NCBI GenBank assembly: GCA_018882895.1
Contig: VERF01000005.1
Span: 3,378-67,377 of the forward strand
Direction of reading: 5' to 3'
Source: Candidatus Kapaibacterium sp.
GTDB lineage: Bacteria; Bacteroidota; Ignavibacteria; Kapaibacteriales; Kapaibacteriaceae
Length of the DNA stretch: 64,000 nucleotides
Below are positions 374 through 38,445 of the stretch, piece by piece. The translations under genes were made by a program, and so were the position numbers. A model generated the notes under the pieces. That model worked only from the letters and a program-made list of their open reading frames with translations, was not told the DNA's origin and did not search any database. The stretch's first letter is position 1. Each line of letters starts with the position of its first letter.

Positions 374-1945
374 TTAGACAGGGGGTTTTTCCGAAAGGGT
401 CAACCCCTCAGAACGCTGCACGGTGTAGTCGATCTCCCAGTCACTCTTGAACAGCACCACCGGACGTTCCTGATCGTCGACCATCACAGGGGCGGCCGTC
501 GACGGACGCGCGGCGCTGGTGATCCATCGAAGACGCGTATAGGGGAGGCGCTCCAGACGGATGCGTTCGTTGTACTCGTTCTCCATACGCCATGCGAAGA
601 GTTCCAGCTGGAGTTCCCCGACAACGCCGACGAGAGGCACGGGGCTTCCATCGGCTTCGGTGAAGATCTGGATCACCCCTTCTTCGCGCAGCTGTTCGAT
701 GCCCTTTCGGAAGGACTTCGAGAACGACCCCGTAGCGGGCCACACCTTGGCAAAGATCTCCGGGGCGAATCTGGGAAAGGACGGAAGCGTTGCCGCCGTG
801 CGTTCGGTAAGCGTATCTCCAACCTGGAACAGTCCCGGATTGGTCAGTCCGATCACGTCTCCGGGATAGGCCTGGTCAATGATCTTGCGCTCTCTACCGA
901 AGATCTCGAACGGATACGTCAGCTTGGTCTCCTTGCCCGAACGCGGGTGCATGGCTGTCATTCCCCGCGTGAACGTGCCACTGACAATGCGAAGGAAGGA
1001 GATCCGATCGCGGTGGGCCTTATTCATGTTGGCCTGTACCTTGTAGACGAAGCCCACGAATTCGTTGCCCTCCGGCTCGATCGTACCGGTCGACATAGCG
1101 TATGGCTGCGGCGTTGGCGCCAGGTGCAGGATCGAACGAAGGAAGTGTTCGATGCCGAAGTTTGTGATGGCCGAACCCCAGAAGACGGGAGTGCAGCGTT
1201 CGGAAAGGAACGCGTCGGTGTCGAACTCGGGGATCACGTGATCGACAAATTCCAGGTCCTCCAGGAGCTTGTCGTGGGCCATATCGCCGATGGCAGAGCG
1301 AAGTTCGGCTCCTCGAATGTCGCCCACGCTCACCGGGGCCTTGTAGCGGTTACCGACCGTGCGTTCGAACTCGAAGAACTCACCCGTCTGCCGGTCGTAG
1401 ATCCCACGAAAGTCCGGCCCATCGCCGATCGGCCACGTGCGTGGTATGGCGGCAATGCCCAGTACCTGTTCGACCTCGTCGAGGAGCTCCAGCGGGTCGC
1501 GTGCCGGCCGGTCCATCTTGTTCATGAACGTGATGATCGGGATGCCCCGATCGCGGCACACCTTGAAGAGCTTGATGGTCTGTTCCTGGACGCCGCGGCC
1601 GGCATCCAGGAGCATGATGGCCGAATCAACGGCCATGAGCGTACGGTATGTGTCTTCGGAGAAGTCCTGGTGACCGGGCGTATCGAGGATGTTCAACAGC
1701 AGACCATCGTATTCGACGCGCATGGCGCTGGAGGATACCGAGATCCCGCGCTGCTGTTCGATCTCCATCCAGTCCGAGGTGGTCGAACTGTGCTTGCCCC
1801 CTGTCACGGCACCGGCCTGATGGATCGCTCCCGAGTAGAGCAGTAGCTTCTCGGTCATTGTCGTCTTGCCGGCATCGGGGTGGCTGATGATCGCCACCGT
1901 CCGACGGCGCCGGCATTCGTCGTGGATGTTGGCCATAGCCGGCAA
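374..1945 (-). CDS. prfC: peptide chain release factor 3
   Basis: 523 aa. Translational GTPase motifs AIISHPDAGKTT, DTPGHQDF and NKMDR, with RF3-like sequence throughout. The start could be the second Met at 1936. Confidence 0.95.
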   Translation of the reverse strand: MPAMANIHDECRRRRTVAIISHPDAGKTTMTEKLLLYSGAIHQAGAVTGGKHSSTTSDWMEIEQQRGISVSSSAMRVEYDGLLLNILDTPGHQDFSEDTYRTLMAVDSAIMLLDAGRGVQEQTIKLFKVCRDRGIPIITFMNKMDRPARDPLELLDEVEQVLGIAAIPRTWPIGDGPDFRGIYDRQTGEFFEFERTVGNRYKAPVSVGDIRGAELRSAIGDMAHDKLLEDLEFVDHVIPEFDTDAFLSERCTPVFWGSAITNFGIEHFLRSILHLAPTPQPYAMSTGTIEPEGNEFVGFVYKVQANMNKAHRDRISFLRIVSGTFTRGMTAMHPRSGKETKLTYPFEIFGRERKIIDQAYPGDVIGLTNPGLFQVGDTLTERTAATLPSFPRFAPEIFAKVWPATGSFSKSFRKGIEQLREEGVIQIFTEADGSPVPLVGVVGELQLELFAWRMENEYNERIRLERLPYTRLRWITSAARPSTAAPVMVDDQERPVVLFKSDWEIDYTVQRSEGLTLSEKPPV

Positions 1946-1947
1946 AC

Positions 1948-2772
1948 TTACGGCTGGATCGGCGTCGACGCTGCCTCGCGTGTGTTGACGTCGAACAGGA
2001 TGCTCACACCAAAGCGCAATGGCGTGATGGTCCAGGCCGCATCGGTGATCACATCCGTGAACATCGGCGAATACGTCACCTCAGGATTGATGCTCAGTCC
2101 TCCGGCAAGGGGCGCAGAGTAACGCAGCCCGATGATCGCACCGGCCTGCAGGCCGCTGGTGTTCGGAATGTCGGCACTCGAGACGTTGTACAGACCCGAC
2201 CCGGTGGGGAAGTTGTACGGTAGAGAAGGATCCTTGAGGCGCTCCTGCTGATCGTACGTTCCGCCGAGAGTGGTGCCGATGCGAAGGCCGCCCAGCACCG
2301 ACAGTCCGCCGCCGAGCCCGAGGCTGGCCACGGGCTCGAGAAGCAGAAATGTCGTGGTCGTCGACAGTGTGTGTTCGATGGATGACGAGAGTGTGCCATT
2401 TCCGGCGCGGACCGTGATGGGCTCGGATGATGCGAAATCTGTCGATGCCGACTGGTACACCACACGCCCACCAATGTCGATGGTCTTCGACATTGGCACC
2501 ATGAACTCTGCACCGAAGACCATTCCCGAGCCGGATGTGGAGGCGTATCCCGGACAGCATGACGCAACGGAAGGCAGCCGGAACGACGTCACACCGTTCA
2601 TCATGATACCGTACGAGGCGTGAGCACCGACGGACATCACGCGACGTGACACCATGGCCGGTTCCTTCTTGGGTTCGGGCTTTGGACGTTCTTTGGAGAG
2701 AGATTCCTGGGCAATGACATTGGCGAAGCCGAGGACGAGCAGTGCCACAAGGGCGATGGTTCGATTCATCAT
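1948..2772 (-). CDS. small outer-membrane beta-barrel protein with vicinal-Cys motif (paralogue of 37684..38445)
   Basis: Signal peptide MMNRTIALVALLVLGFANVIAQ. Alternating Gly/Ser/Thr-rich amphipathic strands and an aromatic-rich C-terminus (RFGVSILF). Motif SCCPGYASTSGSG aligns with ACCTYESGTS in ORF 37684..38445. Starts 18 nt after the giant cargo gene, preceded by a GAGGA ribosome-binding site. Confidence 0.7.
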   Translation of the reverse strand: MMNRTIALVALLVLGFANVIAQESLSKERPKPEPKKEPAMVSRRVMSVGAHASYGIMMNGVTSFRLPSVASCCPGYASTSGSGMVFGAEFMVPMSKTIDIGGRVVYQSASTDFASSEPITVRAGNGTLSSSIEHTLSTTTTFLLLEPVASLGLGGGLSVLGGLRIGTTLGGTYDQQERLKDPSLPYNFPTGSGLYNVSSADIPNTSGLQAGAIIGLRYSAPLAGGLSINPEVTYSPMFTDVITDAAWTITPLRFGVSILFDVNTREAASTPIQP

Positions 2773-2790
2773 GATGTGTTTCCTCGGTGT

Positions 2791-5700
2791 TTAGCGTTGA
2801 ATAAGAACCGGAATGGTCGTCACCTCACCACGAGCCTGAACGGTCATCGTGTAGGTGCCGGCGCCGAGACCACGCACATCCAGTGTGCGACGGAGGTCGT
2901 CGCCGGATGTGGCCGACTCTTGGCCGCTCATGAGCGTCTGACCAAGCGTGTTGGTAAGGGTCCAGCTCAGCAGGTCCGTGCCAAGCCCCTTAACGTCGAT
3001 GGTGACGTCCGAGCCGGCCGGTGTCGGATACACCACAACGCCATAGCCGTTCTTCTTCGGGATCAGGTAGCGATCTCCACCTTCTCGGCAGATATCGCTG
3101 ATGGTCACCTGACCATTGCGCTTCTCGATCTGAGCACCCGTGAGCCCGATCCACTGGAAGTCGGTCAGCGTCAATGCCGTGCGATCGGCCGAGCCGAGCA
3201 CAGCGGTGAAGTTCAGGGCAAAGAGCGTGCCGACGGTGTCGACTCCTCGCGTACCCTGGATGGTGACCGAGCATGGGCCCGAAGTGTTCGGCAACCAACA
3301 GTCGACCACGTTGGCACGGCCGACCACAACGCCGGGGTCGTAGGTGAGTGTTGCACGCCACGACTTTGCATCGGAGGCGTTGAGTCCCTGTGAGCTCAGA
3401 AGGCGCACCGGCACGACGAACTGTTCGCCTACCTTCGCGCTGACAGAGTCGATGCTCACGGTGCTGGAAACAATGGTCGTCTTGGTGCACGTTGCCGTTA
3501 CAACTGTCTGGGCCGTGACTCCCGCGCAGGGCAGTAAGACGGCAGCTTCAAGCGTGTCGCTGATCGTGGTCCGACCCTGGCAGGCCGTGATGAAATCAAC
3601 CATGAGTTCGCCACCGGGAAGAATACCGACAAGGGGGCCGGGCACAGCAACATCGACGGCCGTGCCGCTGCTTTTGGAAGAGACACCTACGAAGATGGTG
3701 TCAGTTCCGGTGTTCGTGAACTTCGTCTTGCCCGTAGCAGTGTTGTTGATCGCACCAAGAGCAACCGTCGGATTATCCGAGCGCAGAGCGACGCTCGTGC
3801 GCACGCCCTGAACACGGATCACACGGCGCACGTCGCACGGATCGAATGTCACCACGATACTGTCAACCAATGGACCATCGGCCGCCGGCGTCCATGTGAG
3901 GCTGAACGACTGGGCCTGACCCGCCGTCAGCGTTTGGCCGTTTGTGAGCGTGGTTGTGACGCGACCGCCGTTTGTGACCGATTTGATCGATGCCGTTCCC
4001 GTTCCATCGAACGACAACGTAGCCGTCTTCTGAACCGATGTCCCGGGCGCGCAGGCCGAGAACTCACCGAAGTCGACCACGGAAGGTGTGGTAAAGGCGA
4101 TGCCGTTCTTTTGCAGTGCGTAGGAAACACTCACTTTGACGGCGCATGGTTCAACCTTAAGATCCTGCGTACGGCTGAATGCACCCGCCGCCGATGGTCG
4201 CAGCGAGACGTTCACGATCGTCGAAGACTTGGCGCCGATTGTCAGGGGGCCTGCCGGCGCATACACGATCTCAGGATCGTTAGGAAGCGTCACCGTCACC
4301 GGTACGTTCGACGTGTTCTCGATGGTGATGGCCGTATCGCGTTGGCCCTCACATCCAGACAGAGTGCCGGCATTGATCGAAGCAGGCGTCACCGTGGCCG
4401 TGACGGCGCTGGTGACGGCATTGAGCTTCACGCGCAGAGAGTCCTTGCACGGACCAGATTCGAATGGGAAGACCACATCCACCGAATACGTGCCCGGCGT
4501 CGGCGTGTAGGAGAATACAACTTCGCGACTCTCACCTGGCTTGAGTGTTACCTCGGCAGTTGGTGAGACAAGCGCAAATGGGGCTGCGATGGCCACGGGC
4601 TTGACAACGAGATCAACCTTGCCGCTGTTGCGGATAAGGGCTGTGTCCCGGCGCACATCGGTGTCGCAGACCACTCCCGCACCGAACGACACTACGCCCG
4701 GAGTGATCGAGGCTGTGAGCTGATCCTTCTTGGCGGTGTAACGGACCAACGTCGACCAGTCACATGGCGTGCCCGACACGGTGAACGTTCCGTTGATGGT
4801 CCCTGCAGTTGATGCCGAGATGCGCACGCGCAGATTCACCGTCGAGTTCGGGGCAATGACTACGCCCGGTGTGAGTGACGTCAGCATGCTGATGCGCGGA
4901 TCATCGGGAACGAATCCCGTTGCGCGCAGCTCGTAGGAGTGTGGATTTGTGATCGAGAACTCCAGCTCGGACGACGAGGCGCAGGCGTCAATGGTGCCGA
5001 AATCAATCGATGGTGGAGCCGCTGACGGCTTTGGATCGATGACCGTTGCAAGCACGGTGTCGCGAGCGCTACAGCCGGAGGCATCGGTTATCGTGACCTC
5101 ATAGCGGGATGTCGTGCCCGGGTTCACCGTAGGAGTCTGAAGTGTGTCGTCATCGATAAACTCGACGCCGGTCTCGACCCTGTTCCACTTATATCGGTAA
5201 GGGGGCGTTCCGCCGCTCGGTACGGCACGAAGCAGAACGCTCGACTTGATGCACAGCGATGTGTCGCGTCCGGCTGATACGTTCGGCTTGGGGTTGCGAC
5301 CGATGAATATCGTGTCGCGGTAGCGGCAACCGTCAGCCGTTGTACACAGCACACGATACGAGCCTGAATCACGAACGATGATATTTGCCGTCGTCTCACC
5401 TGTCGACCACAGATACCGTGCAAACCCCTTCGGACCGATGAGTTGCCGTGAATCAACGTCGCAGATCGTTGCGGGTCCATTCGGTTGGATCTCGATGATC
5501 GAGTCCTTGCACTGACTGAAATATGCCACGAACGCACTCTTCCGGAGCGTGTCCTTGTCCAGTTTGGACGAGTCCTGATAGGCCCCCGTTGTCGTGGTCA
5601 TCCGGTAGCTCTGAGCGATCCCCGTGAACACCACGTATGCGTTCTGGTCCAGCGCGACGTCGAATAGTTCGTCGTTACCGAAGTCGGTATTTGGCGGCAC

Positions 5701-7758
5701 GACCGGTGGTGGTGGCGGCGGTGGCGGTGGTGGTGTTGGCAGATTGGTCTGCGGCGGTGCACCAAGGAACGAGCCATAGAGTACGATGGATCCGGCAGGG
5801 TTGAGCTTGCCCATGATGCCGTCGGTGCCACTCGCGGCAAAAGGTGTCGACTGCACGGCATCGGCCGTTACCGGAATGTTAGGCGAGCGGCCCGTATTGC
5901 CTGCCACCCAGATGTTATCGGCTTGGTCAATGGCAACGCCGCGCAGAGCATCAGCCGAGTCACCGCCGTAGTAGGTTGACCATGCAACGACACCGGCTGA
6001 AGTGTACTTGCGGATGAATCCATCGCTTTGTCCGGTGAACGTACCTTTCAGCGCGGCCTGAACGGGGAAGTCAGCCGCCTCGGCCGTGCCAACGATCACA
6101 ACGTCACCCTTGCTGTCGATGGCGATGTCACCGAGCGTCTCAAAGCTCGCGGAGCCGAAGACCGATGCCCACAGACGTGTCGGTGTCGGACCGAATTTCA
6201 CAACCCCAACGTCATAGATCCCCTTGAAGCGCGAGCCGTCGGTTACCGGGAAGTTGTTCGACTCGGTCGTGCCGGTGAAGATGACGTTACCCTGCTTGTC
6301 AAAGACGATCTTGCCGCCGTACTCAAAGTCGCCCCCTCCGTAGAAAATCAGATAGTCATTGGTCCACTTTGAAGGGTTGGCAGTGCGCGGTTTGACGATG
6401 CTCAGAAACAGGTCCGTGTTGTCGTTGAAGTTCGAGGTGTCCTTTCGGTAGGGGGCTTCCCCGAACAAACCGCCAAGTCGTGGAGAGCGCGTATGGCCAA
6501 CGATGGCCACACGGTTTGCGGTTACTGCGATGCCCGTGGCCACATCATTCTCGCGTCCGAATACTTCCCAGCTGTCGCCCCACTTGCCATCTGGCAGGAG
6601 CATCAGCACCATTGCTTCCTGAAGCTGGACCGAGTCAGGGTCGCCATACGGTGCACTCCCAATAAGGGCATTGGACCATTCGGGACGGTCCTTTGAGTTG
6701 GACTGACCGGCCATCCAGATGTTGCCTTTGGCGTCGGTGGTGACGTCGTTCAGCTTGTCATCGAGCGAACCGCCATAATAGGTGTGCCAAATGAATGCCC
6801 CGTTCTCATCAAACTTGGCCACGTAGCCGTCGGTGCGAGCCTTGAGGCGACGCTGCAGAACGCCCGGAGAGCTGGGCATGTTGGTTGCGAGCGTCGATCC
6901 GGCGATGATGATGTTCCCTGTCGGATCGATGGCCGTGTAGGCCGACTCGATCGTGTTGTTGCCACCGTAGTAGGTGGCCCAGATCCGCTGTGGGTCGATG
7001 ACAAGGATCCGTGTTGGATCGTACGAACCAAGATCGAACCGTACCGATGAGCCACTCACTTGATAACGGGCACGAACCGGGATGCGATTCGCTCCGGCGT
7101 CATCGGTAGTGAACACGACAGGAGCTTGTTCGGAAAGGGAGCCAAGGGGCGTCTCGACGATCAGGTTTCCGTCCTCGTCGGTGACGGGAGCCGTGGTGCC
7201 GTCATAGCGAAAGGCGATGAGCCTTGGGTCGGCACCGGGTTGCACAACGAAGTCGTACTTCAATCCGAGCGGCGTCAGATACATCCGCATGTCGATGCCC
7301 GGCCACACCTCATGGTATACGATGCTGCCGAAACGGTCGGCTACGATCCCATCAACACCGGTATGAGGCCCAATGTGGCGGATAGTGCCGGGCTGCCGGT
7401 CAACGAACTCAACCCGCGGATCCGGGTTGCTGGCGATCAGGCGCATGTCTGCCCTGAAGAGGTCTGCCTCATACTCGGTCATATACGGGTCACGCGATGG
7501 TATCCGGTAGTTGACCTGCTGCAGAATGTCGAGCCCCTTGCTGTGAACATATGCCGTCACGTCGCCGAGGCGAAGGATGGCATCAACATGGCGCGAATCG
7601 GCACCTGCTTCATACCGGGCCTGGCCGACGTTTCGGTCGAAGGCCACCGGTGCCCTCGGTGTTGTGAGTCGCGATGCGGTTCCGGAAGCCGTGGCCACCC
7701 CTCCGCAAAGGACGTTTAGGATCAGCATCGGGATAAGCAAGCCGGCAAGACGAAGCAT
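2791..7758 (-). CDS. giant (~1655 aa) T9SS-sorted surface protein: SBBP beta-propeller repeats, poly-Pro tract, ~6 two-Cys Ig-like modules, cohesin-like module, type-A CTD
   Basis: Track ORF 2791..7950. The likely start is Met65 (ATG at 7758) because it gives the signal-like MLRLAGLLIPMLILNVLCGGVATASG. Contains repeated YYGG..D....D..GN...G.T.S..FP units. The cohesin-like segment is VSIDSVSAKVGEQFVVPVRLL...LTYDPGVV. The C-terminus VVVYPTPAGSDVTIDVKGL...GTYTMTV...IPVLIQR fits the Por secretion tail. Confidence 0.85.
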   Translation of the reverse strand: MLRLAGLLIPMLILNVLCGGVATASGTASRLTTPRAPVAFDRNVGQARYEAGADSRHVDAILRLGDVTAYVHSKGLDILQQVNYRIPSRDPYMTEYEADLFRADMRLIASNPDPRVEFVDRQPGTIRHIGPHTGVDGIVADRFGSIVYHEVWPGIDMRMYLTPLGLKYDFVVQPGADPRLIAFRYDGTTAPVTDEDGNLIVETPLGSLSEQAPVVFTTDDAGANRIPVRARYQVSGSSVRFDLGSYDPTRILVIDPQRIWATYYGGNNTIESAYTAIDPTGNIIIAGSTLATNMPSSPGVLQRRLKARTDGYVAKFDENGAFIWHTYYGGSLDDKLNDVTTDAKGNIWMAGQSNSKDRPEWSNALIGSAPYGDPDSVQLQEAMVLMLLPDGKWGDSWEVFGRENDVATGIAVTANRVAIVGHTRSPRLGGLFGEAPYRKDTSNFNDNTDLFLSIVKPRTANPSKWTNDYLIFYGGGDFEYGGKIVFDKQGNVIFTGTTESNNFPVTDGSRFKGIYDVGVVKFGPTPTRLWASVFGSASFETLGDIAIDSKGDVVIVGTAEAADFPVQAALKGTFTGQSDGFIRKYTSAGVVAWSTYYGGDSADALRGVAIDQADNIWVAGNTGRSPNIPVTADAVQSTPFAASGTDGIMGKLNPAGSIVLYGSFLGAPPQTNLPTPPPPPPPPPPVVPPNTDFGNDELFDVALDQNAYVVFTGIAQSYRMTTTTGAYQDSSKLDKDTLRKSAFVAYFSQCKDSIIEIQPNGPATICDVDSRQLIGPKGFARYLWSTGETTANIIVRDSGSYRVLCTTADGCRYRDTIFIGRNPKPNVSAGRDTSLCIKSSVLLRAVPSGGTPPYRYKWNRVETGVEFIDDDTLQTPTVNPGTTSRYEVTITDASGCSARDTVLATVIDPKPSAAPPSIDFGTIDACASSSELEFSITNPHSYELRATGFVPDDPRISMLTSLTPGVVIAPNSTVNLRVRISASTAGTINGTFTVSGTPCDWSTLVRYTAKKDQLTASITPGVVSFGAGVVCDTDVRRDTALIRNSGKVDLVVKPVAIAAPFALVSPTAEVTLKPGESREVVFSYTPTPGTYSVDVVFPFESGPCKDSLRVKLNAVTSAVTATVTPASINAGTLSGCEGQRDTAITIENTSNVPVTVTLPNDPEIVYAPAGPLTIGAKSSTIVNVSLRPSAAGAFSRTQDLKVEPCAVKVSVSYALQKNGIAFTTPSVVDFGEFSACAPGTSVQKTATLSFDGTGTASIKSVTNGGRVTTTLTNGQTLTAGQAQSFSLTWTPAADGPLVDSIVVTFDPCDVRRVIRVQGVRTSVALRSDNPTVALGAINNTATGKTKFTNTGTDTIFVGVSSKSSGTAVDVAVPGPLVGILPGGELMVDFITACQGRTTISDTLEAAVLLPCAGVTAQTVVTATCTKTTIVSSTVSIDSVSAKVGEQFVVPVRLLSSQGLNASDAKSWRATLTYDPGVVVGRANVVDCWLPNTSGPCSVTIQGTRGVDTVGTLFALNFTAVLGSADRTALTLTDFQWIGLTGAQIEKRNGQVTISDICREGGDRYLIPKKNGYGVVVYPTPAGSDVTIDVKGLGTDLLSWTLTNTLGQTLMSGQESATSGDDLRRTLDVRGLGAGTYTMTVQARGEVTTIPVLIQR

Positions 7759-7890
7759 CAGAATCCTCGTTACAATTGTTTCGTATAGAGAAACGAGAAT
7801 ACGACACAATCGGCCAACCGACAAGTAACAACCGGTGCTATTGCGTATCATTGGCCCTGTTTCGACAACCATGAACATGGCCATGATGCA

Positions 7891-8715
7891 ATGACGACGC
7901 TTGAGACCCTCTCGACGGCCGCCGGACGTGCGCTCCTGCGAGACCTTCATCAGGAGCTGCGATTCGACAAGCAGATGAACTCAATCACAACGTTGAGTTA
8001 CCTCTGGCGTATCTGTACGCGAGAGACAGACCTGTTCCGCACGGTCAATCGTGACGTCACGATCCTGCATCCCCTGGGTCTGTTCTCCGGCACCTCTCTG
8101 TGGATGCAGGAGATCGTCAACCGCTTTTACTATGCACCTATCAACGCCTTTGTGTACATGGGTGCGGCCATTCTGCTGGTTGCAGTTGGACTGAATCGGA
8201 TTCGCATCATAGACACTCCCGGGATCCTCGTGGCGGCCATCATCATCGAGGCGTTGCTGCTGGTTGTGCTCTTTCTGGTGATGTTCTTCACACCCCCGAG
8301 CGAGATCGATGCTCAATCTTCAGAAGCGCAAGCAGACGGAGCTACGCAGGAACTCCTGCGCGAGCTGGGAGAGATTGGTCGTGACTATGCGGCCATGGCC
8401 GTTCAGTTGGAGACGATCTCGGTGACGCTCCACGAGGTGGTTGAGCGTCAGGATGTCATGACGCGGCAGCTGCGCGACAGCGTCGAGGCCGCTGTTGGTG
8501 CGGTGGCGCCCAATCCTGAGCTCATGCAGGCGATGAAACAGAACACGCATGCCCTTGCCGACTTTTCCGAAAGCGTCACGCTTCTGAGCGAACGACTCCG
8601 CGCCGTTGAGCGTCAGGAGGTCGAGGGCCTGGTTCGGCAGGAGCTGGAGAAGATTCTCTCACGCAACATCGTCGATCGAGATGGATCAGCGCCAGCCCCG
8701 TCGTCCAAGAGTTGA
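7891..8715 (+). CDS. GldL/PorL-like inner-membrane motor (stator) protein
   Basis: Two TM helices (NAFVYMGAAILLVAVGL and GILVAAIIIEALLLVVLFLVMFF) followed by a ~140 aa coiled-coil-like tail. The Glu buried in TMH2 (GAG 8248..8250) is residue 49 if translation starts at the internal ATG 8104 (203 aa, GldL-sized). It resembles my recollection of F. johnsoniae GldL (..FAYGMGAA.., ..LLTE49ALIF..). The ORF is open from 7891, and which start is used is unresolved. Confidence 0.6.
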   Translation: MTTLETLSTAAGRALLRDLHQELRFDKQMNSITTLSYLWRICTRETDLFRTVNRDVTILHPLGLFSGTSLWMQEIVNRFYYAPINAFVYMGAAILLVAVGLNRIRIIDTPGILVAAIIIEALLLVVLFLVMFFTPPSEIDAQSSEAQADGATQELLRELGEIGRDYAAMAVQLETISVTLHEVVERQDVMTRQLRDSVEAAVGAVAPNPELMQAMKQNTHALADFSESVTLLSERLRAVERQEVEGLVRQELEKILSRNIVDRDGSAPAPSSKS

Positions 8716-10138
8716 GATCTACTTCATCCTGTACCTGCTTGCGCTGGTGCTGCTGATGCCGGATGGGGTGGTGCCTTCCTCTGATGAGGTAGCTTCCAGA
8801 GCGCCTCTGCGCATCGAGCTCTTCCCTGAGCGTATACGTCTCACCTGCGAGGTCAAGCGTGACTCGTCAGGGGGCGTGCGCGTGCTTGGCCTTGATTCGA
8901 CGAACGTCATACGATACTCTCCCGAGCTGACGAACGTCAGCGTCCGCGCGGTGATCGAAGATGTGACCTCGGGTCAGACGCTGACGATCGAGCCGGACGG
9001 CAACTCGCCGACGCGATTCGCATCGATTCGTCATGATGAGGGTCGGAGCGCATTTGTCTTTTCCTGGCGGCCTCTTCTTGATGCCGCTCAGTCCAAGACC
9101 TTCCGTGTGATCATTCAAGCCAGTGGGGTGCCGGTCAATGGCATTGCCACCGATGCCATGAGCGCCGTCGGCAGTACGCAGTTTGTTCTCACCACGGTGG
9201 TCAATGACCGTCAGCCCCCTGAGCTCGTCTTCATACCGGGCAGGCGCGACACTCTGGTGCTACGCGAAGGTCCGGTCACGTCCGAAGGCGCATCATCTCC
9301 TGCCGAATTCTGGATCGAGCCTGCCCGTGACCAGGTGTTAACGTTCTCATCACAGGAATGGAGCAACCGCATCACCATTGGCGGCGCAGACCCGCAGCGT
9401 GATCTGGCCGAGATGCCTACTGTCCGCCTCAGCGGTGAGCCCATGTCCGACGTGTCGAGATCCATCGATCAGCGCACGCTTATCGTGCGCGGCCGGGCTC
9501 CGCGCTCGGGAACGTCGACCGTGGAGGTCACTGCCCGCCGTGCAGACGGCATGGTGCGGACGACGAGTTTCCGCGTCATGGCCATGACCTACTCGACGCC
9601 GTCGGTGCCCGACGTGGTCTATCCGGGCGTTGAATATGTCATTGATCCGAAGATCCCGGCCGACCGACCCGGACTCCGGGCCGTTGTGCGTGATGGATCA
9701 CGTGAGATAGCCTCTACCACAGAGGGAGTTATGCGCGTTCGGTTCGCCATCCGCGATACGGGGCGAAGCATGACCTTTGAGCGAAGCATTGACGGAGTTG
9801 TCGAGATGAATGCGCAGAGCATCCAGGTTCGACCCTTCCCGCCCCCTGTCATCCGAGAGATCAGACGCGAGACTGATCCAAACAAGCGACTGGTGGTGGT
9901 TCAGTTCTGGTCGCAAGACCGGGGCGAAAATCGGCCTCAGATACGAGTTGTCGACGGAAACGTGGGGGCCGTAAGGAAGCTCTCGGGATACCTACGGCAG
10001 GCCGACAATGCACGTCCGGCCGTCGCCTGGCTCGAGGTCTTCGAAGTCACCCGAAAGGATGCTTCAAAGCCGTTCACGTTCCGCGTAGTGGCCTCCGACG
10101 AGCGCGGAAGGGAAAGTCCCGCCGTCGGCGCCGACTAG
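8681..10138 (+). CDS. GldM/PorM-like bitopic protein with all-beta periplasmic region
   Basis: Track ORF 8606..10138. ATG 8681 gives MDQRQPRRPRVEIYFILYLLALVLLM: Pro-Arg10, then Tyr18 eight residues later inside a single TMH, the same spacing as GldM SPR9QKMINLMY17L (from memory). The remaining ~450 aa is beta-rich Ig-like sequence, with a late VRPFPPPVIREI segment. Overlaps the upstream gene by 35 nt. Confidence 0.5.
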   Translation: MDQRQPRRPRVEIYFILYLLALVLLMPDGVVPSSDEVASRAPLRIELFPERIRLTCEVKRDSSGGVRVLGLDSTNVIRYSPELTNVSVRAVIEDVTSGQTLTIEPDGNSPTRFASIRHDEGRSAFVFSWRPLLDAAQSKTFRVIIQASGVPVNGIATDAMSAVGSTQFVLTTVVNDRQPPELVFIPGRRDTLVLREGPVTSEGASSPAEFWIEPARDQVLTFSSQEWSNRITIGGADPQRDLAEMPTVRLSGEPMSDVSRSIDQRTLIVRGRAPRSGTSTVEVTARRADGMVRTTSFRVMAMTYSTPSVPDVVYPGVEYVIDPKIPADRPGLRAVVRDGSREIASTTEGVMRVRFAIRDTGRSMTFERSIDGVVEMNAQSIQVRPFPPPVIREIRRETDPNKRLVVVQFWSQDRGENRPQIRVVDGNVGAVRKLSGYLRQADNARPAVAWLEVFEVTRKDASKPFTFRVVASDERGRESPAVGAD

Positions 10139-16415: not shown

Positions 16416-19400
16416 ATGAAACAAACCGGCCGATCAACTATGAGTCACATCATCATGCGCAAGCTTCAACTCCTTATCGCAGTCACACTCCTGTGCCTGT
16501 CTGCTCAAACCCTGCCCGCCGGTTCGCAATCGACGCCGGCCACGATGATCGACGGAATCATCATGAACGTGGGTCAATGGCCTTCGCACGTGCTGTTTGC
16601 CCATCGTTCCGGTGGACAGAACGTGTGGATCACAAAGACGGGCACCGAGGTAGACAAGTTCACGATCGACCGCAAGCGCGAAACCCGCTCCGGTGAGGTG
16701 GTCGTGCGCCGCTTCGTTAACCCCGGTCCAGCATCGGAGCTCGGTATCATTGACCAAGTCGGTACGGTCTCGTTCTTCCTCGGAAGGGGAGCCGCCTCGT
16801 GGTACTCCGCTCCGGTCTTTCGTTCAGTAGTGATCCGTCATGCCGCGCCCGGTGTGCACGTCGAGTACTCTGCGGGTGAAAAGGGGCTTGTGCAGAATGT
16901 GGCACTCGATCCAGGGGTCGACCCTTCGGCTGCTGCCATGATCATCGAGACATCCTCCTCTTCGTCAACCCCACAGGCAATCGTCTCTCCGACGTCCCCA
17001 ATCGTGTATGCCTCGTACATCGGCGGCCCCGGTGATGATCACGTAGTTGGTATCGAGTATCTGACCAATGGTGAGGTCATCATCGGTGGTACAACGTCAG
17101 CTATGAACTATCCCGGCACCGCGGGCGGTTATTCGACCTCGCTCAAGGGCGTGACGGACGGATTCCTAGTGCGCCTCGACAGAAAGCTTCAGAAAGTGTT
17201 GTCGTACACGTTCTACGGCGGCAGCGGCGACGATCGGATCACTTGCATGATCAAGGACAAGAGCAACGCCATCTACATCACTGGCGAGACAAACTCGGCG
17301 GACCTGCCTGTGACGTCAGGTGCGTCGGGACAGCTGTACAAGTCCGGAATCGATGCCTTCATCGCCAAGTTCGACAGTTCACTCACCAAGCTGCAGATCA
17401 GCGGCTACCATGGTGGTAACAAGGATGATAAGGGTGTGGCCATTGCCGTTGATCAGAACGGTGTGATCTTTTTGGCAGGCAACACAAATTCTACGACGAA
17501 TCTTCCGGTGACCTTTCCGGTGACAATCACTCGCCGGGACTGGCGCGGTCGAACCACCACCGAGCCAGGTGGCGGATCGAACCAGGGACAGACCGACATT
17601 TTCCTAGCCTTTTTCTCCGTCAATGGCTCCATGCAGCAGTCACGCTACTTTGGCCGAAGCGGCATGGAAAAGGTAACGGCCATGTGCATTGATGGATCGA
17701 ACAATGTGTTCTTCACCGGTTCGACAACGTCGCCTGATTTCGAGACATCTCCGACTCCGGGTTTTTTCTCTTCGGGTCGTTTGCCGTATGACCGCACGTT
17801 CAATGGCGGCACCACCGACGCCTTCGTGGTGAAGATGAACAATGAGCTCCAGCTGGCCAAGTCGGACGACGGAACGTATTCGACGTATTTCGGCGGAAAC
17901 AAGGATGAGGAAGGACGTGGAATCTTCGTTGACGAGATCGGTCGTGCACAGGTGGTGGGCGTCACGAACTCGACGAATCTCGAAACAATCGGAACCCTCG
18001 TTACCCAGCCGGTAGGCGACCAAGATATCTTTCTTGCCGTGCTGCCTGACGATGGACGCAACCTCACGGGAGCCACCTACTTCGGTGGAACCGGGGCTGA
18101 CGATGTGCGCAGTGTCCACTACAATCCGGTGTCAAAGCTTGCCGTACTCAGCGGTTCAACCCAGTCTGGTGACTTTCCGGTTGCCGGCGACGGTGCAAGC
18201 AACGAGCGCATCGGCACGACGGATGGCTTCTTGACGTTCATGAACACGTCTACGAATGTCTACACCACACTTATTGGCGGAACCAATGCCGATACGATTG
18301 TCTCGGTGTCGGTTGACCCTGCCGGTGACGTGTACTACGTGACGTCGACAGATTCGGACAACATGCGCCTTCCGGACAGTGCCGCGCAAGGTGCCGTTGG
18401 AGGTTTGAATGCTCACGTAGGTAAGTACGCCATCGGAACCGTAGAGCTTACGGTCCCCAGCGGCGACGAAGTCTGGTGTGCCGGTGGTAATCGTGCCATT
18501 TCTTGGGCTGCGCAGAACATGGCGGATTCGACAAAGTACTCGATCGAAATGGCACCCGCAGGAAGCTCCAACTGGACCGTGCTGACGCGCACAGCCTTGG
18601 GTCGGAGCTTCTCGTGGAAGGTCCCGAACGTACCTACGGGCCAGTATCAGCTACGAATCACGACGGCACGTGGCCACATGAGTCGCCTGTTGACGCCGTT
18701 CACCATCTCGAATCCACCGGCTGTAAAGGAGCAACCGAAGGATGCCAGCGCATGCCTCGGAGGCCGTGTCATGCTGCGAGTTGTGGCCGAAGGAGCAGGG
18801 CTGAAGTATCAGTGGCGCCGTGCAGGACAGAACATCGCCGGTGCTACGCAGGATTCGTTGGTGATACCTGCGCTCGACGCAGCGGCCCTCGGGAAGTATG
18901 ATTGTGTGATCTCGGGTACGTGCACGCCAAATGCGACGACCGCCACGGTGAACGTTTCGACGGCCGTTGCCACGGCGATCAGTCGTCAGCCGACCGGTGT
19001 GTCGGTCGATGCCGGAAAACCATTCACCCTGTCCGTTGCCGCCACGGGTTCCAATCTTGCCTACCAATGGTCACGCAACGGCTCGTCGATCGCCGGAGCA
19101 ACGGCAGCAGAGTATACCGTTGGCGCAGCGTCGAAGAACGACGAAGGAGAGTACACATGTCGCGTTGACGGCGGATGCGGGTCGGTGACATCTGAAAAGG
19201 CCATCGTGGCTGTGTCGACGACGTCAGTTGAAGAAGAGACGATCGTCGGCGACACGCGCCTGCGACTTGTTGGCAGCCATCCTGTGTCGGATGTTGCGAC
19301 GCTTCGCCTTGACCTTTCCCGCGGCGCCGATGTGGCTGTCGACCTTCTCGACGTCAGTGGCCGATTGGTCGCTTCGATGAATGTCGGCAATCTGCCGGCC

Positions 19401-19511
19401 GGTTCGCATGAAATCCTCGTTCCCACCGCGGAATGTGAGTCTGGCCTGCACATTGTCCGGGTCTCAGCCGGTAATGTCCGTATCTCCAAGTCCATCGTCG
19501 TGGTGCGGTAA
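16416..19511 (+). CDS. SBBP beta-propeller repeat / Ig-like (I-set-like) surface protein with T9SS type-A CTD (paralogue A)
   Basis: 1031 aa. Signal-like MRKLQLLIAVTLLCLSAQT (start may be 16440 or 16455). GQWPSHVLF N-domain, many Y.GG.gdD...D..GN...G.T.S.dFP repeats, two KYQWRRAGQNIAGAT / AYQWSRNGSSIAGAT Ig-like units, and tail ...GLHIVRVSAGNVRISKSIVVVR. Confidence 0.85.
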   Translation: MKQTGRSTMSHIIMRKLQLLIAVTLLCLSAQTLPAGSQSTPATMIDGIIMNVGQWPSHVLFAHRSGGQNVWITKTGTEVDKFTIDRKRETRSGEVVVRRFVNPGPASELGIIDQVGTVSFFLGRGAASWYSAPVFRSVVIRHAAPGVHVEYSAGEKGLVQNVALDPGVDPSAAAMIIETSSSSSTPQAIVSPTSPIVYASYIGGPGDDHVVGIEYLTNGEVIIGGTTSAMNYPGTAGGYSTSLKGVTDGFLVRLDRKLQKVLSYTFYGGSGDDRITCMIKDKSNAIYITGETNSADLPVTSGASGQLYKSGIDAFIAKFDSSLTKLQISGYHGGNKDDKGVAIAVDQNGVIFLAGNTNSTTNLPVTFPVTITRRDWRGRTTTEPGGGSNQGQTDIFLAFFSVNGSMQQSRYFGRSGMEKVTAMCIDGSNNVFFTGSTTSPDFETSPTPGFFSSGRLPYDRTFNGGTTDAFVVKMNNELQLAKSDDGTYSTYFGGNKDEEGRGIFVDEIGRAQVVGVTNSTNLETIGTLVTQPVGDQDIFLAVLPDDGRNLTGATYFGGTGADDVRSVHYNPVSKLAVLSGSTQSGDFPVAGDGASNERIGTTDGFLTFMNTSTNVYTTLIGGTNADTIVSVSVDPAGDVYYVTSTDSDNMRLPDSAAQGAVGGLNAHVGKYAIGTVELTVPSGDEVWCAGGNRAISWAAQNMADSTKYSIEMAPAGSSNWTVLTRTALGRSFSWKVPNVPTGQYQLRITTARGHMSRLLTPFTISNPPAVKEQPKDASACLGGRVMLRVVAEGAGLKYQWRRAGQNIAGATQDSLVIPALDAAALGKYDCVISGTCTPNATTATVNVSTAVATAISRQPTGVSVDAGKPFTLSVAATGSNLAYQWSRNGSSIAGATAAEYTVGAASKNDEGEYTCRVDGGCGSVTSEKAIVAVSTTSVEEETIVGDTRLRLVGSHPVSDVATLRLDLSRGADVAVDLLDVSGRLVASMNVGNLPAGSHEILVPTAECESGLHIVRVSAGNVRISKSIVVVR

Positions 19512-19550
19512 CGCGTCATAATCAGCTCCGGCACACCGGGCAGTATTTCC

Positions 19551-19586
19551 GAGTCCCGTGATTTCGCATCACGGGACTCTTTTTTT
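19551..19586 (+). terminator. rho-independent terminator
   Basis: Perfect 12-bp stem GAGTCCCGTGAT / ATCACGGGACTC, a 5-nt loop, then TTTTTTT. Lies 40 nt after the stop of 16416..19511. Confidence 0.8.
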
Positions 19587-19667
19587 CGACCTGTAACGAC
19601 TTTGAAACTATTTTGTTCTTGATTTCGGCCAAGTCAGGCTGAAAATTTCCCATTAAAGGCGGATAAC

Positions 19668-22600
19668 ATGAACTCATCGGTTCGACGACTTCTTCAAACG
19701 CTAACATTCCTCCTGGTGATCGCCCCCTTCATGGCGAACGCCGGAACGGTCGATCTGGGGCGGACTGTTCCGGAGGGATTCATTCTCAACGCGGGCCAAT
19801 GGCCGGCTGAGGTTCTTGGCGTTGCCCGACAGAGCGGCTCCGAGGTGTGGATCACGCGAACCGGAGTGGTGCTGGATCAATACAGCATCTCAAAGGATGA
19901 TCAGCAGCGCAATGGTGTTGTTACACGGGAAGGCTTCCGGGAGATGCAGTCCCGCTTTGAACTGCGAACCGGCACCGTGGTTGGTCATGTCACGTTCGCA
20001 CGTGGCTCGGACCGCTCGCGCTGGGTATCGGCTCCGGTGGTGTCCAATCTCTGGCTTGTCGACTGTTATCCGAACGTGACGTTCGAGTACTCACGCTCGC
20101 AGGATGGGCGCGTCCGACGCGAGATCCTGGCGGCCCCGGGTGCCGATCTGGCAGCGATCAAGCTCGACGTTCTCGGTGGCGGGAAGAATGAAGTCGCCGA
20201 TGTCTCCGTGACCACGTCTACTGTCTATGGCACCTTCATCGGCGGCCCATCGGATGATGAACTTGCCGGTGTCGAATATCTTTCGAACGGCACCATTGTT
20301 GTGGCCGGAAACACAGCGGAGCTTTCGGCTCCCGGAGTGACAGGTGGCTACAGCTCATCAATGAAAGGGAGGATCGACGGATTCCTTGCGCGGTTCGACT
20401 CACGTCTGGAAAAGATGCTCTCCTACACCTACATCGGCGGCAGTGCCGAGGATCGAATCAGGGGGCTAACCAAGGACCGCCTGAACAATGTTTACGTCAC
20501 CGGTGAGACCATTTCGACTGATTTCCCGACCACCTCAGGAGTCACCGGGAAGCTTTACAAAGCCCTTAACGACGCCTTCGTTGCCAAGTTTGATTCAACG
20601 CTTACCAAGTTGATCGTCAGCTTCTACCACGGCGGTAACAAGGATGATGTTGCCCGTGCGATCAAGGTCGACCAGGACTTCAACATCTATATCGCCGGAT
20701 CCACCAATTCGACGACCAATTTCCCGGTGACATTCCCGGCGACCGTGAAGATCACCATTCCGGGAGGTTGGGGTAGGCCTCCTACGTATCGTGATATTCC
20801 CGGTGGAGGAGCAAATCAGGGCCAGATCGATGGTTTTGTTGCATCGTTCTCCCAGAACGGTTCGATGCTTCTTTCACGGTTTTTTGGTGGAACCGGCAAC
20901 GACGTTTTCACAGCGCTTGCTCTGGACAAGTCCAGCAGCGTGTACATGACCGGATATACCACATCATCGAACTTCGAGACCGCGCCGACGTCGGACCGAT
21001 TTGCCTCGGGTCGTAAGCCGGCCGACGAGTCATTTAATGGCGGCATAACAGATGCCTTCGTGGTCAAGCTCAGCAGGGAACTCACGCTCGCCAGCACCGA
21101 CGACGGCACCTACTCGACGTACTTCGGCGGCGACAATGATGAGGAAGGTCACGACATCGTGGTGGATGATCTTGGTCGCGCCTACATTGTCGGTTGGACG
21201 ACCTCGAACAATCTCCCTGCCGTCGGCACCCTCAACACGCAGCGCATCGGACAGAAGGATGTCTTCCTGGCCTTCTTTGCCGATGATGGTCGGGAACTTG
21301 CCGGCACAACGTACTATGGCGGAACGGGTGATGACGCGGCCTATGCCGTGGAGCTTATCTCCGGTACGACAGTCATGATGGCCGGTACGACCAATTCGGA
21401 GAACTTCCCGCTGACCGGTGAGGGTATCGTATCGACGCGCGCCGGTGACACGGATGGATTCCTGGCGACGATCAACACAGCCACGAACATCTATGCCACG
21501 CTGGTCGGCGGCAACGGTGTCGATACCATCAAGGGGCTATCGATCGATCCTCTTGGAAGTCCATACTACATCGCCTCGACCAATTCGGCCAATCTGCTTA
21601 CGTATCCGAAGTCGGCCTCGACAGAGCTCGCCGGCATGCACGGCTATGTGGCAAAGCATGCGTTCGGAGTAGTTGAAGTAACTGCGCCGATAGGGGGCGA
21701 AACATATTGCGTCGGCATCAGCAAGCCGATCTCGTGGTCGGCCCTCGGTTTCGCCGATACGTCACGCTTCCAGATCCAATACTCTGCCTATGGATCGAAC
21801 GTGTGGAACGATGTCGCCAAGAACGTAAGCGGCCGGAGCTACCTCTGGAAAGTGCCGGCGCTGCCCACAGGACAGTACGTGGTGCGCGTCACAACCATCC
21901 AGGGTCACCTGAGCGAACTTCTCACTCCGTTCACGATATCAAGTCCACCATCGATCGTCAAGCAGCCTGTGGACGTATCCGCCTGTGGCGGCAAGTCTGC
22001 AACACTCTCGATAACGGCCGGTGGGGCGGGTCTGAAGTATCAATGGCGCAAGGCGGGCGTGAACGTTCCGGGTGCCACCAATGCCACCTACACCATTGCC
22101 GCTGTTGATGCCAGCAGTGTGGGCAAGTATGACTGTTTGATCTCAGGCACATGCACGCCGAGCGTCACCTCCGCCTTGGCATCGGTCTCGTTCGGAACAC
22201 CAACGGAGATCACCCGCCAGCCTGCCGGTATGACCGTTGACGAGGGCAAGCCGTTCACACTCTCGGTTGCTGCCACGGGGTCGACACTTTCATACCAATG
22301 GAGCAAGAGCGGCGTCGAGATCGCCGGTGCAACTACCGCCGAGTACACCGTTTCTGCCGCAACCAAGGCCAATGAAGGACAATACACCTGTGCCGTGACC
22401 GGAGGTTGCGGAACGGTCACGAGTTCCGCAGCAACTGTTGTGGTGATGGGCGGAACGTCGGTCGATGAAGAACTGTCAGGTTCGTCAATCCTGCGCGTGG
22501 TTGGTCCGGTCCCCGCCGACGCCGACGTCACGGTGCGGTTCTCTCTGGATGCGATCCCGAGTGCCGCCGCCCGTTTGTCGATCGTAGATCTGAACGGCAA

Positions 22601-22745
22601 CAGGCTCGCAGCTCAAGCTGTTCAGTCATCCACCGGATCCTTCGATGCGCGCCTGGCCACGAACATGCTCGCTGCCGGGATGTACTTCATCGAGTATACT
22701 GATGGGGCTATTGCGGCACGCAGTAGACTGGTGATCGCCCGCTGA
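19668..22745 (+). CDS. SBBP beta-propeller repeat / Ig-like surface protein with T9SS type-A CTD (paralogue B)
   Basis: 1025 aa, collinear with 16416..19511 (GQWPAEVLG..., [30 protein letters not shown], tail ...[22 protein letters not shown]). Signal peptide [18 protein letters not shown]. Confidence 0.85.
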
Positions 22746-37687: not shown

Positions 37688-38445
37688 AGAAGCACGTTCT
37701 CATGGTTCTGATCCTGGCGGCCTCAGCCGCATCCGGTTTTGCGCAGGGATTCGACTGGCAACCGTCTCCGCGTCGGCCATACAAGGCTCCGCGCAACTTC
37801 ATTGGTCTGGAGCTCGGCATTGGGCGCGGGTCGCATACAGGATCGCTTCCGTATCTCGAGGTCGACGTTCCGAATGCATGCTGCACCTATGAGTCGGGTA
37901 CCAGTCTGCCAATGCGCATCGCGCTGGTCGGGGAGTCATGGATCGCCCCAACGAGAGCCCTCGGGTTTGATCTGTCGCTCCAGCTGCAGTCTGTTTCCTT
38001 TGCTGCCGCGCAGCAAGAGCTGCCTCGAGTTGGACGCGGACCACTTGTGACGCGTTATGAGTTGGATGTTAAGACATCCTATCTGGCCATCGGCGCATCG
38101 GTGCGTCAGCGGTTGGGTTCCTCGATGGTGGTGGCCTCGGCGGGTGTGCGTAGCGCCTTCCTTTTGAGTGCCTCCATGACCAATCGTGAGGTCGTGATAG
38201 GTCCAGCCGAAGATACCTTCGCCGATGGCCAGAGAGTTCTGACGCTGCCAACCGAAGGGCTGGCCGACGCGGCATCGGTGTTCATCGAGCCGAATGTCTC
38301 CATTGGCTACGACCTGCCCCTTTCCGTTGGTACTTACATCGAGCCGTCGGTGAATTTCGGCTATAGCCTGAGCACTCTCTCGTCGAGCCATTCGTGGAAG
38401 TATTTCTGGTTCGGCCTCGGTGTGCGCCTGATGAAGGGGCGGTAG
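37684..38445 (+). CDS. small outer-membrane beta-barrel protein with vicinal-Cys motif (paralogue of 1948..2772)
   Basis: Signal peptide MKKHVLMVLILAASAASGFAQ and motif NACCTYESGTS. The C-terminal YIEPSVNFGYSL...WFGLGVRLM aligns with SINPEVTYSPMF...RFGVSILF of ORF 1948..2772. ATGA overlap with the upstream cargo gene. Confidence 0.7.
   Translation: MKKHVLMVLILAASAASGFAQGFDWQPSPRRPYKAPRNFIGLELGIGRGSHTGSLPYLEVDVPNACCTYESGTSLPMRIALVGESWIAPTRALGFDLSLQLQSVSFAAAQQELPRVGRGPLVTRYELDVKTSYLAIGASVRQRLGSSMVVASAGVRSAFLLSASMTNREVVIGPAEDTFADGQRVLTLPTEGLADAASVFIEPNVSIGYDLPLSVGTYIEPSVNFGYSLSTLSSSHSWKYFWFGLGVRLMKGR

Follow-up and report, generated by a model that had tools for sequence, protein, structure and literature searches.

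A conserved pairing of cohesin-tailed secretion cargo with an OmpA-like barrel in Kapaibacteria, a candidate surface-anchoring module

To our knowledge, surface retention of type IX secretion system (T9SS) cargo is understood only for anionic lipopolysaccharide (A-LPS), used with type A C-terminal sorting domains (CTDs), and for PorP/SprF, used with type B CTDs, and this in a few model Bacteroidota. Cargo with a type B CTD binds cognate PorP/SprF-like barrels, as in the pairs SprB-SprF and PG1035-PorP (PMC9143113, PMC12618676), and in the Porphyromonas gingivalis pairs PorZ-PorQ and PorU-PorV a CTD-bearing protein is kept on the surface by an outer-membrane barrel (PMC8545088, PMC12365241). 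Here we describe two paralogous gene pairs within a 64,000-nucleotide stretch of Candidatus Kapaibacterium sp. (GenBank assembly GCA_018882895.1, contig VERF01000005.1, positions 3,378 to 67,377 of the forward strand; hereafter the window). In each, the gene for a T9SS-targeted protein with a cohesin-fold module near its end (cargo1, cargo2) is followed by the gene for a small predicted outer-membrane barrel (barrel1, barrel2). Our literature searches on a link between cohesins, the T9SS and barrels, on PF13568, and on the T9SS in Kapabacteria and Ignavibacteria found no description of this module. The cargo-plus-cognate-barrel theme is itself already known, while the version with a cohesin, a type A CTD and an OmpA-like barrel appears to be new.

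The closest functional analogue of these pairs would be PorP/SprF with its type B CTD cargo. In both cases the gene for a T9SS-tagged surface protein is followed directly by that for a cognate outer-membrane barrel, several paralogous pairs are found per genome, and the role proposed is surface anchorage or specific shuttling. However, the window barrels match neither PF11751 nor its TIGR counterpart and are modelled as small, eight-stranded and OmpA-like; the cargo CTD is type A (TIGR04183) instead of type B (TIGR04131); and the feature that tracks the window barrels is the cohesin-fold module upstream of the CTD. PorZ-PorQ and PorU-PorV are also pairs of a CTD protein and a barrel that are conserved and near single-copy, as opposed to variable cargo. 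They differ from the window pairs, whose cargo is made of immunoglobulin-like (Ig) and cohesin-fold domains and for which no T9SS component model was matched. PorZ is built of beta-propellers, and PorQ and PorV are larger barrels.

A first-pass annotation of the window, made from the sequence alone, had proposed that the two genes of copy 1 belong to a distinct cargo-plus-cognate-barrel module other than PorP/SprF, and at the genomic level linkage, family and fold searches support this. The pairs have the appearance of a conserved envelope module of Kapaibacteria/Ignavibacteria-type Bacteroidota. Our tentative and preferred reading, which we rate a little short of probable, is that the barrel serves the cohesin-tailed protein as its cognate outer-membrane partner and, once the T9SS has exported it, keeps it at the surface.

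The most informative evidence is the linkage of the two genes across genomes. The barrel motif QGFDWQY was the sole criterion by which barrel2-type loci were taken from metagenomes, and 25 of the 30 informative ones carry a same-strand, CTD-bearing open reading frame (ORF) ending no more than 63 nucleotides upstream. Where upstream sequence sufficed, BLASTP identified this ORF as a cargo2 orthologue, with 21-33% identity and a length of 750-790 residues when complete. In the loci whose flanks were read, the neighbouring genes are unrelated from one lineage to the next, with nuoM/nuoN in the window, L007 and L076, and recA/recX and TauE/fmt/pfk in L036. A cargo1 orthologue likewise lies directly upstream of the barrel1-type gene in all 27 species loci of a scan that took one genome per species, and the surrounding order (yceG, two unknown membrane proteins on the other strand, cargo1, barrel1, prfC and a CTD protein of about 1150 residues) is conserved as well. 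As a test of linkage, the barrel2-type loci are the stronger of the two sets.

Two further barrel subfamilies show the same association. In the third (P0128, locus L078) an ORF with a cohesin end and a CTD overlaps the barrel start, and in the fourth (P0186, locus L077) a CTD ORF is followed by an inserted BrnT toxin-antitoxin pair and then by the barrel. By contrast with these linked forms, an OmpA-fused long form of the family, P0107 (locus L073), has no CTD gene upstream. The linkage of these barrels to cohesin- and CTD-bearing genes is thus conserved in both window types and in two subfamilies beyond them. The first-pass annotation had also considered that the barrels might turn out to be ordinary PorT/OmpA-like outer-membrane proteins without linkage to cargo; they are indeed OmpA/PF13568-like and have stand-alone relatives, yet their linkage is nonetheless conserved.

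The window itself contains exactly two barrels of this family, each right after one of its only two proteins with both a cohesin module and a CTD. Four CTD proteins are encoded in the window, and a barrel comes next only after the two that contain a cohesin module. The remaining two, tandem paralogues at 16416..22745 that are related to the N-terminal part of cargo1, provide an internal control: barrel pairing tracks the cohesin module, not the CTD or the N-terminal domains. Each member of the first pair, whether cohesin-CTD region or barrel, is homologous to its counterpart in the second, a relationship that would fit duplication of the pair as a unit.

Copy 1 is encoded on the minus strand. 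Its cargo ORF spans 2791..7950, and translation from the Met at 7758 yields 1655 residues, starting with a signal peptide (MLRLAGLLIPMLILNVLCGG...) that is followed by a DUF7948 domain, an SBBP beta-propeller, small Cys-containing modules, five choice-of-anchor-D Ig modules, a cohesin-fold module and a type A T9SS CTD (Table 1). Pfam/NCBIfam models matched the SBBP beta-propeller repeats and four stretches of HYDIN/VesB-type Ig, that is, choice-of-anchor D. About six Ig modules of about 95 residues had been claimed in the first-pass annotation, each with a Cys near its start and a PC near its end. The Cys/PC pattern is present in four modules, but there are five modules in all, of about 98-110 residues each, the fifth having C1393 and PC1410-1411. 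The arrangement described for the downstream gene proved correct: a signal-peptide barrel protein of 274 residues begins 18 nucleotides after the cargo stop codon, behind a GAGGA.

Copy 2, on the plus strand, repeats this order at 35474..38445 with a paralogous barrel, as had been noted. Barrel1 and barrel2 share 21% identity by BLASTP (E=1e-4), and the profiles of their families align over 209 columns with a probability of 98.5% (hhalign, E=1.8e-15). Copy 2 is in fact a trio: 21 loci also have a signal-peptide protein with DUF1573 Ig domains, whose gene is either downstream of the cargo gene or divergent and upstream of it.

The cargo tails were examined with a profile of the C-terminal 300 residues of 23 cargo2 orthologues from independent loci. 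Positions 60-200 of this profile match residues 7-150 of the 151 in cohesin 2vn5_A (E=2.8e-8), and other cohesins are matched as well (1g1k_A, 1.7e-7; 5nrk, 2.4e-5; 1aoh, 5.7e-3), as are the solved T9SS CTDs 8glk_D and 8glj_D. The cohesin-like call of the first-pass annotation survives this search, because the orthologue profile matches solved cohesins over their whole length. Compared with the cellulosomal cohesins 2vn5, 1g1k and 1aoh, however, the cargo module occupies a non-cellulosomal context, right before the T9SS CTD of a Gram-negative surface protein, and the Pfam Cohesin (PF00963) scores of the window cargos, 16.5-20.9 bits, fall below the gathering cutoff of 24.1 (the weak match in cargo1 covers residues 1433-1478, E=0.01). 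The type A assignment of the CTDs was also upheld. For cargo1, TIGR04183 gives 27.8 bits (cutoff 23) and the type B model no match, and Por_Secre_tail (PF18962) is matched by 22 of the 23 cargo2 orthologues (best, 1.4e-12). The signal peptides of both cargos were identified by direct reading of the sequence. In the cargo tail, sequence profiles thus identify a true cohesin-fold domain and, after it, a type A CTD.

This tail is homologous in cargo1 and cargo2, the profile matching cargo1 across both the cohesin module and the CTD (E=1e-11), and the N-terminal parts of the two proteins are unrelated. The best-conserved block of cargo2, LDSxCGLxYK, lies exactly at the junction between cohesin module and CTD, where cargo1 has ISDIC. 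Cargo2 has two conserved Cys 19 residues apart, and the cohesin region of cargo1 contains C1487, C1496 and C1557. A similar stretch, ..D[DV]VC[AT]GR.., is found just before the CTD of the protein of about 1150 residues that follows prfC in most barrel1-type loci, and T9SS cargo throughout this lineage may have a Cys where domain and CTD meet.

The barrels have few close homologues (28 clusters for barrel1 and 15 for barrel2), all annotated as hypothetical and all from metagenome-assembled genomes (MAGs) labelled Kapaibacteria, Ignavibacteria or Bacteroidota. At E<=0.1, no Pfam or NCBIfam family, PF13568 and PorP/SprF included, is matched by either barrel. An AlphaFold2 (AF2) model of barrel1, computed from a 28-sequence alignment, has a predicted local distance difference test (pLDDT) value of 80.7 and forms an antiparallel barrel with eight long strands according to DSSP, which supplies the strand number sought from structure prediction. 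The best Foldseek match of this model is the OmpA transmembrane domain 1bxw (E=5.9e-5), followed by omptins, OmpX, Ail and other small barrels, with low template-modelling scores of 0.3-0.45. As modelled, then, barrel1 is a generic small outer-membrane barrel and not a new fold. A sequence-only search of the PDB with the barrel profile gave no match.

A profile of the two subfamilies was also searched against 1.84 billion representative proteins, with clustering at 50% identity, and reached 2,906 clusters with E<=1e-3, of which 387 have E<=1e-30. The family has a short form of about 250-290 residues and a long form of about 660-750 residues, in which the barrel is joined to two OmpA peptidoglycan-binding domains (OmpA_C). 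The long forms (P0107, P0108, P0112, P0165 and some 40 more) have 'OmpA family protein' as their only annotation. Each stands alone in its genome, and together they probably represent the ancestral housekeeping form. The PF13568 (OMP_b-brl_2) cutoff of 27 bits is passed by two relatives reached through the profile, P0112 (36.6 bits) and P0144 (31.8 bits); among close family members, 5 of 23 match PF13568 weakly at E<=1 (best, 2.6e-5). Because of these matches, the family is placed as a divergent, unannotated branch of the OmpA/PF13568-type eight-stranded barrels, and not of PorP/SprF; PF13568 is, as we take it, the family that contains PorT.

The window barrels resemble this class in their eight antiparallel strands, their length of about 250 residues and their signal peptide. 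They differ from it in lacking a PF13568 match of their own and a periplasmic domain, and in having conserved N-terminal peptides, a CC in loop 1, well-conserved external loops and linkage to a cohesin- and CTD-bearing gene. Membership in PorP/SprF was considered and rejected, given the eight-strand model and the absence of a PF11751/TIGR03519 match in both barrels and, at E<=1, in 23 family members. These results agree with the remark in the first-pass annotation that the barrels lack the PorP/SprF N-terminal signature.

The CC that gave the barrels their first description is present in the predicted loop 1 of both (2554..2559 in barrel1 and 37879..37884 in barrel2). However, it does not mark the cassette. 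Through most of the superfamily, OmpA-fused forms included, the CC is kept, and a minority of linked barrels retain the first Cys only; because the stand-alone OmpA-fused forms have it too, the CC is a trait of the family and was discarded as a cassette-specific mark.

Other conserved elements are found at the barrel ends. An invariant Gln follows the predicted signal-peptidase site (residue 22 of barrel1, 2707..2709; residue 21 of barrel2, 37744..37746) and begins a conserved peptide, QESLSKERPKP in the barrel1 type and QGFDWQxSxRxP in the barrel2 type, the corresponding N-terminal motif of barrel2 itself being QGFDWQPSPRRP. Barrel1 ends in ...STPIxP. The invariant Gln would fit the 'Q-rule' of Bacteroidetes (pyroglutamate N-termini), which holds also in Ignavibacterium album (PMC5837995).

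The N and C termini of the barrel are presumably periplasmic, since this is the case for all such barrels and since the C-terminal OmpA domains of the long relatives require it; loops L1 (with the CC), L3 and L4 would therefore face outward. These predicted extracellular loops are the most conserved parts of the barrel, with a majority fraction of 0.75-0.80, compared with 0.51-0.59 in the periplasmic turns and 0.55-0.75 in the strands. The external loops of outer-membrane proteins are usually their most variable parts, and because the pattern is reversed here it suggests a conserved external partner. The most economical candidate for this ligand would be the product of the upstream gene.

The module has two parts. 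A Sec-exported, T9SS-targeted surface protein carries a type A CTD and, as its last folded domain before it, a cohesin-fold module ending in a conserved Cys-containing linker (DSxCG in cargo2, SDIC in cargo1). Encoded immediately downstream and translationally coupled to it is a small eight-stranded barrel of the OmpA/PF13568 type without a periplasmic domain. In the tentative scheme that we propose, once the T9SS had carried the cargo across the outer membrane, the conserved extracellular loops of the cognate barrel would hold the cargo's membrane-proximal cohesin/linker region at the cell surface, an anchoring similar in function to the way PorP/SprF holds type B CTD cargo and assembled from unrelated parts. 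The analysis shows the gene order, the identity of the domains, the barrel fold and its family, and a pairing that is conserved over deep divergence; we infer that barrel and cargo touch, which of them depends on the other (the barrel as anchor or as aid to secretion) and how the loops are oriented.

Several observations weigh against such anchoring. PorV/PorU is the classical route for cargo with a type A CTD, which has no need of a private barrel. The barrel shows no evident dockerin-like partner sequence, and nothing dockerin-like appears among the Pfam matches of the barrels or of scanned neighbour genes, although no search was aimed at dockerins. A T9SS is possible in Ignavibacteriae (PMC5837995), and among the scanned genes of the window, which covers only 64 kb, no T9SS core gene (SprA/Sov, PorV, PorU, GldKLMN) was recognised. 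The linkage in copy 1 is inseparable from general synteny: prfC follows barrel1 by no more than 12 nucleotides, as tightly as barrel1 follows cargo1, and because conservation of the whole neighbourhood, prfC included, extends to every genome, adjacency at this place is no specific evidence. Also, about 17% of informative barrel2-type loci have no cargo gene (L043, L046, L052/L053, L071), and the stand-alone OmpA-fused members keep the same CC motif. The last three of these points, together with the position of the family at the border of PF13568, would suit an ordinary small OmpA-like structural protein that has no physical partnership with the cargo and is adjacent to it through operon inertia or co-regulation. 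We consider this improbable, however, because the pairing is retained where protein identity is down to 21-33% and the flanks are completely different, is seen in four or more barrel subfamilies, is kept despite an inserted toxin-antitoxin pair, and follows the cohesin module instead of the CTD or N-terminal domains; in copy 2 the start and stop codons even overlap.

The same conserved linkage is compatible with a barrel that acts as a private helper of secretion or assembly, either a shuttle or a T9SS accessory like PorT, PorG or PorP, on which export or maturation of the cargo depends before it is released or attached elsewhere. Indeed, Flavobacterium johnsoniae cannot secrete type B cargo without the cognate PorP/SprF shuttles (PMC12618676). 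The conserved N-terminal peptides of both barrel types, which are predicted to be periplasmic, could also contact periplasmic machinery. A helper role nevertheless seems unlikely to us, given that an eight-stranded barrel has no lumen or lateral opening comparable to those of PorV/PorP-type shuttles, that the barrels match no model for PorP/SprF or any other T9SS component, and that their best-conserved parts are the predicted external loops. Anchoring by the barrel could, on the other hand, be covalent, with the invariant loop-1 Cys disulfide-bonded to the conserved Cys that the cargo has between cohesin module and CTD. The CC has an invariant first Cys, and in the barrels of L041, L046, L062, L064 and L071 it is the single Cys of the match and has no intramolecular partner there, because the match contains no other Cys; on the cargo side, the cohesin region of cargo1 has an odd number of Cys (three) and DSxCG is invariant in cargo2 orthologues. 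However, the OmpA-fused relatives keep the CC without any cargo gene, the barrel of L071 has a single Cys and likewise no cargo gene upstream, and the two conserved Cys of cargo2 could simply pair together. Co-variation of barrel and cargo Cys was considered as a sign of such a bond, and no co-loss between partners was seen, so that it lends the bond no support. A disulfide link is accordingly very unlikely in our judgement.

Returning to capture by the barrel, it is possible, though on balance rather unlikely, that these pairs represent an undescribed form of surface display in bacteria of the Ignavibacteria/Kapaibacteria type, in which lipopolysaccharide is not the attachment site of cargo with a type A-like CTD. 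A dedicated eight-stranded barrel, descended from the OmpA of the lineage, would instead capture the cargo by its membrane-proximal cohesin module (possibly by way of the invariant junction Cys), and duplication and diversification would have given rise to at least four cognate pairs. If so, they would establish a cohesin-based anchoring principle in the Gram-negative outer membrane, an analogue of PorP/SprF of independent origin, and would add a third T9SS targeting route, composed of a type A-like CTD, a cohesin fold and a private OmpA-like barrel, in deep-branching and mostly uncultured lineages. They would also provide a function for a large unannotated outer-membrane family of about 2,900 clusters at 50% identity and a testable partner for non-cellulosomal cohesin domains. 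Even if the pairing reflects operon inertia, the annotation would still be usable, as a PF13568-related barrel subfamily and a conserved family of Ig/cohesin/CTD proteins.

Table 1. Features of the two gene pairs, their surroundings and related loci. Positions are those of the window unless a locus is named; Ig, immunoglobulin-like; CTD, C-terminal sorting domain; aa, amino acids; nt, nucleotides.
Feature	Position	Strand	Basis or remark
prfC	374..1945		beyond barrel1, toward left window edge
Conserved CTD protein after prfC, ~1150 aa	L001 10457..13906		same position in most barrel1-type loci; off left window edge
barrel1, signal-peptide protein, 274 aa; predicted 8-stranded OmpA-like barrel	1948..2772	-	AF2 model, Foldseek
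Intergenic spacer cargo1/barrel1, 18 nt	2773..2790	-	contains GAGGA ribosome-binding site
cargo1, secreted protein, 1655 aa	2791..7758	-	Pfam/NCBIfam and direct reading
Type A T9SS CTD of cargo1	2794..3033 (residues 1576-1655)	-	TIGR04183
Cohesin-fold module of cargo1	3079..3465 (residues 1432-1560)	-	profile of cargo2 orthologues, positions 53-301, E=1e-11
Pre-CTD motif ISDIC of cargo1, with C1557	3085..3099	-	direct reading
Five Ig-like (HYDIN/VesB, choice-of-anchor D) modules of cargo1	3466..5046 (residues 905-1431)	-	Pfam/NCBIfam and Cys reading
DUF7948 domain of cargo1	6991..7641 (residues 40-256)	-	Pfam, E=6e-39
Protein of 274 aa, two hydrophobic helices (invariant Glu in the second), coiled-coil tail	7891..8715	+	
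Protein of 485 aa, one N-terminal transmembrane helix, then all-beta regions	8681..10138	+	
Tandem DUF7948/SBBP/Ig/type A CTD paralogues, ~1030 aa	16416..19511 and 19668..22745	+	no cohesin, no barrel; sufB next
cargo2, signal-peptide protein, 737 aa; Ig (ASH/HYDIN/DUF1573-type) modules, cohesin-fold module, CTD	35474..37687	+	
Cohesin-fold module of cargo2	about 36986..37423	+	Pfam Cohesin weak, E=1.5e-3
Motif DSxCG of cargo2	37388..37402	+	invariant in orthologues
CTD of cargo2	37448..37684	+	PF18962 20.8 bits, below cutoff
barrel2, 253-aa paralogue of barrel1	37684..38445	+	start overlaps cargo2 stop (ATGA, 4 nt)
Signal-peptide protein, 266 aa, two Ig domains (DUF1573)	38523..39323	+	third member of copy-2 module
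BrnT toxin gene and small partner gene between CTD gene and barrel	L077 270..765		one metagenome contig

The two genes divergent from cargo1 are conserved, and wherever a species locus extends far enough upstream they are syntenic. A resemblance in their transmembrane segments raised GldL/GldM (PorL/PorM) as candidate identities, which neither models nor the PDB nor the predicted fold supported: at E<=10 the two proteins (7891..10138) have no Pfam or NCBIfam match, GldL/GldM included, and they have no sequence match in the PDB. The AF2 model of the 485-residue protein (pLDDT 82) consists of a transmembrane helix followed by all-beta structure, without a helical domain like that of GldM/PorM D1, and its Foldseek matches are generic tandem-Ig proteins such as cadherins, with no GldM/PorM in the top 50.

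Scans of promoters and terminators showed no enrichment over shuffled sequences. A search of sequencing runs for co-transcription returned no RNA run; its only two matches were metagenome runs of the DNA type, in which the share of words was low. Release-factor genes recur, oddly, beside the barrels, with a class I gene (PCRF/RF-1) after the barrel of L077 and prfC (RF3) after barrel1.

A few loci have peculiarities of assembly or labelling. The cargo1 orthologue of L074 (1991..6983) is split into ORFs of 418 and 1254 residues, and the sibling contig L075 has a single gene of 1660 residues at this place; the split is probably a frameshift or an assembly error. Loci of the Kapaibacteria type are also found in MAGs labelled Chitinophaga pinensis, Patescibacteria group and Candidatus Didemnitutus (L010, L017, L021, L023), which are probably mislabelled or contaminated bins.

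After the copy-2 trio come, on the plus strand, a 921-residue barrel protein with CarboxypepD_reg and OMP_b-brl_3 domains (39429..42194) and, further downstream, a TonB-dependent receptor of 742 residues (44983..47211). Receptors similar to those of the window are located 5-6 kb downstream of the barrel in L007 and L076.

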